From a virus (taxonomy: Duplodnaviria; Caudoviricetes): a DNA stretch of 53,242 nucleotides. Shown one piece after another: positions 46,760 to 47,148 of the stretch. Under the pieces are notes generated by a model, which worked only from the letters and a program-made list of their open reading frames with translations, was not told the origin of the DNA and did no database searches. The stretch is taken from positions 1 through 53,242 of the IMG/VR virus record IMGVR_UViG_3300032073_005389, one strand, 5' to 3'. Position numbers and translations under genes: made by a program. Positions within the stretch are counted from its first letter, which is position 1. Every line of letters starts with the position of its first letter.

Positions 46760-47148
46760 TAAAAAGGAGGATTCCGCAAGCGGAATCGGCGTATTTTTTT
46801 AGCGCTCCGCTTGCATAAGAAAGAAAGTTATTTTGATGTGGGCACACTTCACCCAACTTACAATAAAAACAATTACAAAAGAACGCTTCAGCTTCCATAT
46901 TAGTTCTATTCGCAGGGGGTTATTCCCTTTTCGACCCTATCTCTCAAGAGTCTAGCTAATGACTTTCGTAATCTATTTTTTTAGTATAATTATTTAACAG
47001 TAGAACTTTCTTAGATGTATACTTCTCTCAAACGCCGCCTGCACCCGCTTGTAACGCTCTATTATTCATAGTATTGAGAAGCCCCTTCGGGGTTGTTGGT
47101 CTCTTAAGAGTTTACCAGACTTGCTTCCGCTTAAACTGTCATCATACT
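46760..47148 (-). ncRNA. Candidate large structured RNA or 5' leader of the sigma factor gene (about 390 nt)
   Basis: ORF-free; many hairpins and long-range complements; consensus promoter at the 5' end; terminal G(CUUG)C hairpin with a U-rich tail. Confidence 0.5.

Follow-up and report, generated by a model that had tools for sequence, protein, structure and literature searches.

A conserved, structured RNA is encoded on the minus strand of a phage genome fragment directly in front of a divergent sigma factor gene, as judged from the comparison of homologous sequences, and it represents a well-supported new family of large structured RNA next to a phage sigma gene. This RNA probably controls the phage sigma factor or acts as its partner. 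We assign a probability of roughly 0.5 to the reading that it is the leader RNA of the sigma mRNA, gated by a terminator and with its conserved core serving as a platform. That a large structured RNA with its own consensus promoter is directed toward sigma had been proposed in an earlier note on the same DNA, and this proposal is supported by the analysis described here.

The window, i.e. the whole stretch of 53,242 nucleotides that was analyzed, is a 53-kb fragment from an uncultured virus record and is about 35% complete according to CheckV. It encodes rIIA, a DnaE-like polymerase, an UvsX-like recombinase, a ribonucleotide reductase and two tRNAs, the latter being an adjacent pair at 11391-11550 (-) for Arg (anticodon TCT) and Met (anticodon CAT). 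The replicative polymerase at 23592-26159 (-), which is labelled just 'DNA polymerase' in PHROGs, is DnaE-like (Pol III alpha type) and its nearest matches in cultured phages show about 30% identity. WhiB, which would have been a hint for an actinobacterial host, was searched for in the window and not found. The RNA region sits between two divergent genes, a dCMP deaminase gene on the plus strand (47204-47608) and the 192-aa gene on the minus strand (46167-46745). In a six-frame scan for ORFs of at least 60 aa the longest stretch of the window without an ORF is 46746-47203 (458 nt), followed by a stretch of 254 nt at the tRNA genes, so that the region is indeed the longest ORF-free stretch as the earlier note had stated.

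The gene order p124, dUTPase, dCMP deaminase / RNA, sigma, p98, p362 is kept in related loci wherever their DNA extends that far, the exceptions being L046 and L048 with additional DNA separating sigma from p98. As this order is constant across the loci they belong to one phage lineage, and with a single lineage of fixed gene order the linkage between RNA and sigma is not independent evidence for a functional tie. Downstream of sigma, the region 38263-45850 (-) encodes a conserved 98-aa protein with a weak DUF736 match, a glycosyltransferase-like protein of 362 aa, a protein resembling CMP-sugar cytidylyltransferases and a fusion of a NeuB-family protein with a TIM-barrel domain. Together these genes look like a phage-carried nonulosonic (sialic-like) acid pathway.

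Related IMG/VR contigs were found with the sigma protein and with RNA motifs, an alignment of the sigma sequences then led to 48 metagenome loci, and RNA homology at these loci was tested by nhmmer using the RNA of the window as query. An RNA homologue was detected upstream of sigma in 8/8 viral contigs and in 41 of the 48 metagenome loci, while the remaining seven offer at most 9 bases of DNA upstream of the sigma start. Every related locus with upstream DNA therefore has an RNA homologue, and the RNA was never found without a downstream sigma. Scanning the IMG/VR viral contigs for RNA motifs returned the same eight contigs as the sigma scan; in an early motif scan of viral contigs three of six matches (L003, L006 and L007) turned out to be GC-rich chance matches, and another scan added none. 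A more distant sigma (P0062, 36% identity) used as query gave no viral locus. Neither the DNA of the window ('distant' mode) nor the sigma protein had a match in the cultured-phage collection, and the RNA was without match in E. coli genomes at E up to 10. A degenerate 22-mer derived from P5b and searched against 185,579 species genomes gave three hits, which were dismissed as GC-rich chance matches without any wider similarity. The final alignment (A4) comprises 36 distinct sequences after exclusion of duplicates, the 5'-truncated L014 and L061 and the partial L045, L029 and L044. One 252-nt contig from an RNA library (four marine runs, small shares) covers 46931-47182 without differences at a depth of 2.2; it includes the 5' domain together with 34 nt ahead of the predicted +1 and possibly stems from carried-over DNA, and since such contigs show neither strand nor ends it is no evidence on transcription either way.

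The folding energy of the single sequence is unremarkable (MFE -91.9 kcal/mol versus -88.4 +/- 5.4 for dinucleotide shuffles, z = -0.65), and the case for a structure thus rests on the comparison of homologues. Using RNAalifold, a helix scan and per-sequence duplex folding we arrived at a 14-helix model with 77 pairs, in which 97.0% of 2711 cells (36 sequences) are paired versus 90.7% in shuffles, with 0/500 shuffles reaching 97.0%. If the partners are slid against each other just 40-45% of the cells are paired. Compensatory changes on both sides were observed at 29 of the 77 pairs, so that the covariation analysis suggested earlier, carried out here on 36 homologues, did reveal structural conservation. 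Furthermore, cognate strands pair better than non-cognate ones in P1 (32/36), P6 (36/36) and the terminal hairpin (33/33), and the same applies to P5, P5a, P7, P8 and P10. Invariant or frequent G-U pairs, namely U-G at columns 133:150 in 36/36 and G-U at columns 222:334 in 30/36 sequences, indicate that the structure belongs to the minus strand. The RNA core is also better conserved than the sigma coding sequence, with a nucleotide identity of 0.80 versus 0.68, and this is true for 524 of 528 pairs among the 33 sequences with a complete sigma (L060, L062 and L064, in which sigma is cut, were omitted).

Table 1: Features of the RNA, its promoter and the neighbouring genes (positions in the window).
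Feature	Position	Strand	Basis or remark
dCMP deaminase gene with divergent promoter TTGACT-N17-TAAAAT	47169..47608	+	ATG at 47204
Sigma-70-type promoter of the RNA, TTGACA-N17-TATACT	47155..47183	-	11/12 consensus matches
Conserved RNA core, ~313 nt	46836..47148	-	A4 alignment, pair counts, conservation; ends after P10
P1, 5' strand (P1a 47148-47142, P1b 47140-47136)	47136..47148	-	covariation
P2, GC-GNRA-GC hairpin, overlapping AAGCGGAA	47123..47130	-	loop GGAA, GAAA, GUAA or GCAA
P3, small hairpin UCU-UAAG-AGA	47100..47109	-	columns 77:84 C-G in 33, A-U in 3, no mismatch
CCAAC, 5' strand of putative long-range pairing Y	47095..47099	-	100% paired with GUUGG
P4, hairpin CCC-CGAA-GGG	47083..47092	-	98% of cells paired
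P5 (47082-47076 with 47027-47021), enclosing P5a and P5b	47021..47082	-	compensatory changes
P5a, variable hairpin	47071-47059	-	absent in 6/36; all 3 pairs covary in the rest
P5b, interior ACAAGCGGGUGCAGGCGG nearly invariant	47057-47032	-	alignment, pair counts
AGUUCUA, 5' strand of putative pseudoknot X, abutting the P1b 3' strand	47001..47007	-	7/7 pairs, 100% of cells
P1, 3' strand (P1b 47000-46996, P1a 46989-46983)	46983..47000	-	covariation
Domain 2, closed by P6 (46973-46963 with 46881-46871)	46871..46973	-	pair counts, cognate pairing
P7, in domain 2	46952-46933	-	alignment
P8, in domain 2	46927-46916	-	alignment
UAGAACU, 3' strand of putative pseudoknot X	46908-46902	-	inside domain 2
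P9 hairpin, in domain 2	46895-46882	-	alignment
GUUGG, 3' strand of putative pairing Y	46853..46857	-	complementary in 36/36
P10, short variable hairpin	46838..46847	-	CUG/CAG in 29/36, GUG/CAC in window; degenerate in near relatives
Variable linker	46788..46835	-	14-54 nt, no conserved sequence; holds clade-specific GCAAGCGGA at 46814-46806
Terminator-like hairpin GAUUCCG-CUUG-CGGAAUC	46770..46787	-	33/36 sequences; 5/8 pairs compensatory
U-rich tract 3' of hairpin	46751..46765	-	one clade has a tail with few U (GUUGAUAUAAUA)
Sigma factor gene (192 aa), divergent and ECF-like, sigma-70 family	46167..46745	-	Pfam, profile, AlphaFold/Foldseek
Near-start promoters	47169-47204, 50833-50870	+	-10 hexamer 6-10 nt before next ORF start
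Near-start promoters	46181-46143, 41479-41440, 36076-36038, 11339-11302, 9515-9478	-	-10 hexamer 6-10 nt before ORF start

The core is built from two domains, the first being closed by P1 and the second by the 11-bp helix P6 (Table 1). Domain 1 holds P2, P3, P4 and P5, the latter carrying P5a and P5b. In P1 the covariation includes the strand combinations ACAG/CUGU, AAGG/CCUU and AUGG/CCAU as well as AGUAUGA/UCAUACU and AGUGUGA/UCACACU. This strongly covarying helix joins the 5' end (47148-47136) to a segment about 150-165 nt downstream (47000-46983), and the suggestion that the whole RNA is closed by pairing of its 5' and 3' ends is not supported. Both stem pairs of P2 form in all of the 35/36 sequences that have it, and the remaining sequence shows a deletion. 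In domain 2 compensatory changes were found at five pairs of P6, six of P7 and one of P8. Several stems read from the single sequence reappear in the comparative model: the one at 47082-47092 corresponds to P4, the one at 47022-47031/47074-47081 to P5 with its compensatory changes, and the one at 46902-46908/47001-47007 to pairing X. For the stem at 47097-47117 only the inner three pairs hold (C-G to A-U at columns 77:84), as the outer GGU/ACC pairs fail in 12/36 sequences, and the stem at 46840-46854 corresponds in part to the variable P10 and shares bases with GUUGG, the possible partner of CCAAC at 47099-47095.

Two further long-range pairings are complementary in every sequence, and we call both putative because they are nearly invariant, A-to-G opposite U being the one kind of change seen. 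In X (7 bp), which is paired in 100% of the cells, four positions vary in this way, and Y (CCAAC/GUUGG) is invariant except for one such change. The UCUA of X (47004-47001, A4 columns 186-189) can pair either with 46975-46972 or within 46908-46902 (columns 220-223 or 296-302), the alternative partner to X being a 4-bp UAGA at the base of P6; a conformational switch inside the core, based on one UCUA and two UAGA-containing partners, is therefore possible. P9 could adopt either of two registers, since at columns 306:323 a standard pair is seen in every sequence (A-U 17, G-C 10, G-U 9) and 309:323 fits equally well. Moreover, the RNAalifold alternatives 239-241/318-320 and 290-291/312-313 compete with the local P9 hairpin and are indistinguishable from it because all of them are invariant. 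Another candidate helix (columns 171-175/305-309) was rejected, as its cognate strands pair no better than non-cognate ones.

As described in the earlier note, the RNA region begins at a TTGACA-N17-TATACT promoter (47183-47155 on the minus strand). A TTGACA-N17-TATAAT/TATACT promoter is present in 35/36 homologues and the 36th sequence is cut off by the contig end. From the position of the -10 box the +1 of the RNA is predicted near 47148, where helix P1 begins. Promoters of this type are enriched in the window (9 versus 1.2 expected). Seven promoter-like sites, including four of these nine, have their -10 box 6-10 nt ahead of a start codon, and many early phage mRNAs should thus be leaderless or nearly so. 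Among them the dCMP deaminase mRNA is probably leaderless, with a -10 box only 6 nt before the ATG at 47204, and no Shine-Dalgarno motifs were seen at the gene starts inspected. The promoter of the RNA and the divergent one of the dCMP deaminase gene have their -35 boxes in a single palindrome, CTTGACAAAAAGTCAAG at 47168-47184, which is kept in all 35 homologues with upstream DNA and varies in its central bases alone. A plus-strand promoter-like site at 46994-47023 was dismissed as it is not retained in the homologues.

The gene downstream of the RNA, which starts with the ATG at 46745 (-), belongs to the sigma-70 family and is a divergent member of it. Pfam Sigma70_r2 matches the 192-aa protein with 25.4 bits versus a cut-off of 24, and region 4 stays under its cut-off. 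A profile of 20 sigma homologues aligns end-to-end with SigW (residues 8-184, E = 0.0047), and every Foldseek match listed for the AlphaFold model (pLDDT 83.7) is a sigma factor; the PDB entries among the matches listed are free sigma factors, RNA-polymerase complexes or sigma factors with anti-sigma partners. Two cysteines of the protein, C16 and C87, do not vary among the 20 homologues and C76 and H89 hardly vary, and these four residues could belong to a site in region 2 that binds a metal or is redox-active.

Between core and sigma, the perfect GATTCCG-CTTG-CGGAATC hairpin and the U-rich tract reported before were confirmed at 46787-46770. The hairpin is followed by CTCCTTTTTATTTATTTTT and ends 24 nt before the sigma ATG of the window. 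Its distance to the AUG is nearly fixed among the homologues (22-25 nt in 25/33, 19 nt in six and 16 nt in two) whereas the distance from the core to the hairpin varies. One clade is without a convincing U tract. Compared to what defines a leader with an intrinsic terminator, a GC-rich hairpin plus U tract is present ahead of the putatively regulated ORF, and the alternative pairing, which should be conserved and overlap a sensing domain, exists only in the clade of the window.

The earlier note had proposed that three copies of an AAGCGG motif act as arms of a terminator/anti-terminator switch, and all three are located where it had placed them (GCAAGCGGA at 46814-46806, AAGCGGAA at 47132-47125 and CAAGCGG at 47051-47045). 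The attenuator model stands for the linker copy GCAAGCGGA, which competes with the hairpin in the clade of the window, and it fails as a general mechanism because this copy is absent elsewhere. In the window GCAAGCGGA pairs with the 5' arm and loop of the hairpin in the MFE of the whole RNA as well as in the local MFE. The MFE of linker plus hairpin is devoid of the hairpin in the window and in four of its five nearest relatives (L017, L001, L022 and L024, the last one carrying a perfect 10-nt complement), and L018 has lost the linker copy; the copy is thus predicted to act in 5/6 sequences of this clade, and GCAAGCGGA can be regarded as an anti-terminator of the window's clade alone as far as these folding predictions go. 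The other two copies are not supported as switch arms. AAGCGGAA sits in the P2 GNRA hairpin with its variable loop and does not covary with the terminal hairpin, and CAAGCGG stays invariant in P5b even when the hairpin arms become CACUGCGC or CCGCGGG, and its ability to pair with the hairpin appears to be accidental.

The RNA matches no described family in the Rfam search that had been suggested. With Rfam 15 only the two tRNAs were found in the whole window, and for 46600-47350 with E up to 10 the best match has 21.9 bits versus a gathering score of 56. In this region there is no match to riboswitch, T-box, 6S, tmRNA, RNase P and group I/II intron classes, nor to GOLLD, ROOL, OLE, HEARO and known ribozymes as far as these are in the library. 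Twelve homologous loci gave no recurrent Rfam match, and ARAGORN detected no tmRNA.

With terminator-based leaders such as riboswitches, T-boxes and attenuators the RNA shares a promoter-proximal structured 5' leader, a GC-rich hairpin with U tract before an ORF and, in the window's clade, a mutually exclusive anti-terminator. It differs from them by a core that is separated from the hairpin through the variable linker and by the anti-terminator not being conserved. Most aptamers are also smaller and have fewer domains than this core. GOLLD, ROOL, OLE and HEARO are similar in being large, multi-helix, phage-carried RNAs with conserved junctions, but they are larger than ~313 nt, their models are unmatched, and the strict position as leader of one gene sets the RNA described here apart from them. 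Processive antitermination RNAs (put of phage HK022 and EAR of Bacillus) comprise two or three stem-loops within about 70-120 nt; like the RNA described here they are structured, follow an early phage promoter, precede a terminator and are located in cis to downstream genes, yet no likeness in sequence or structure was seen. 6S and Ms1 are abundant RNA-polymerase-binding RNAs that fold into a rod with a central bubble. They resemble our case as ncRNAs possibly acting on the transcription machinery, here beside a sigma gene, but the RNA from the window has two domains and putative long-range contacts and shows no Rfam match to them.

Another sigma-linked ncRNA is the guide RNA of dCas12f-sigmaE systems, for which a length of 85-105 nt, genetic linkage to an ECF-type sigma and the need for a Cas12f-like gene are described (PMC13472631). 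A variable part 3' of a conserved scaffold is common to both (PMC13472631), but the core is ~313 nt long here and the RNA does not fit these systems. Pfam scans of 14 neighbouring ORFs revealed no TnpB/Cas12 domain, in a window that represents about 35% of the genome. A role as guide RNA was also considered for the linker and dismissed, as its best match in the 53-kb window is 12 nt and shuffles reach 10-16. We found no account of the RNA in the literature, including the available parts of PMC10690425, 10.64898/2026.09.22.753630, PMC7771536 and PMC13472631. The family may be listed already among the 10,006 unnamed candidates of the IMG/VR-based catalogue PMC10690425, of which the available main text contains the word 'sigma' 0 times.

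How could such an RNA work? As sigma seems to have no promoter of its own, the RNA would be the 5' leader of the sigma mRNA: no promoter was found between the hairpin and the sigma ATG, and the next one is located at 46181-46153, inside the last part of sigma. The hairpin, which in most clades has a U tract behind it, would halt most transcripts and thereby limit read-through, so that a single promoter would give rise to plenty of free RNA but only little sigma mRNA. A protein, a small molecule or RNA polymerase would bind to the conserved core, which as a platform would tune the amount of sigma, and in the clade of the window an anti-terminator would be added by the second copy of the hairpin's 3' arm in the linker. 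Three of the 36 homologues are without any hairpin, and there core and sigma must share a transcript. The variable linker speaks against a classical riboswitch, in which aptamer and expression platform would overlap. The main rival, which we consider possible though doubtful, is an independent and abundant trans-acting ncRNA that ends at its own terminator, e.g. one acting on host RNA polymerase or on proteins of the ribosome or of RNA decay, as a decoy or as a cofactor, with sigma riding on the read-through. This would agree with the strong consensus promoter, with P1 starting at the predicted +1, with hairpin and U tract in most homologues, with an unconserved linker of 14-54 nt parting core and hairpin, and with a core that is better conserved than the coding sequence of sigma, a common trait of catalytic RNAs and of RNAs in RNPs. 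However, the homologues lacking a hairpin between core and sigma do not fit, the RNA was never found without sigma downstream, and the distance of the hairpin is fixed to the AUG and not to the core.

It is unlikely that the core, instead of being a passive leader, is a new functional RNA class working directly with the transcription machinery. Such an RNA could bind RNA polymerase or the phage sigma and gate or direct the switch from host sigma to phage sigma, as an RNA-dependent sigma system lacking a Cas12f-like protein, or it could be a ribozyme of a new kind, by which the sigma mRNA would be matured. A general, riboswitch-like timer that uses all three AAGCGG copies we regard as quite improbable: the displacement of the terminator by the linker copy 46814-46806 in the MFE of the window would suit it, but homologues beyond this clade do not have that copy, L018 has lost it, the hairpin is part of the MFE in 26 of the 33 homologues possessing it, and the changes seen in the hairpin arms are not accompanied by covariation of the 5' and middle copies. 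A self-cleaving or RNase-directing element that releases a sigma mRNA with a short leader or none at all is very unlikely and purely conjectural. It could account for the complex fold with putative pseudoknots and invariant junctions, and it would put sigma, which has an internal AUG and no Shine-Dalgarno sequence, in line with the other early mRNAs that appear leaderless with several promoters 6-10 nt before start codons; on the other side no known ribozyme family in Rfam matches and no conserved candidate cleavage site was found near the AUG, where the spacer sequence is variable. Finally, a conserved DNA site for replication or protein binding, or a missed small gene, can hardly be credited. 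Its intergenic position between divergent genes and the promoter palindrome, being a DNA feature, would suit a DNA site, but the compensatory changes preserve pairing and the G-U pairs are strand-specific. With respect to a small gene the region has no 3-base periodicity (entropy by phase 0.48, 0.50 and 0.45), 291/321 indel runs in it would shift the frame, and from one homologue to another the longest frame of the core without a stop ranges between 38 and 75 aa.

In summary we have described an RNA that is notable for its ~313 conserved nucleotides, 29 covarying pairs, two candidate pseudoknots and a conservation above that of the sigma gene. To our knowledge few large structured RNAs with many covarying helices have been described, and such orphan RNA classes have sometimes been assigned new functions later. 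Its placement is informative as well, since a leader of ~400 nt was found for sigma as the sole gene of the window, and this long leader fronts the phage's own sigma factor while early genes look leaderless. Through the leader RNA of sigma, the timing of the transcriptional take-over by an uncultured marine phage lineage becomes testable.
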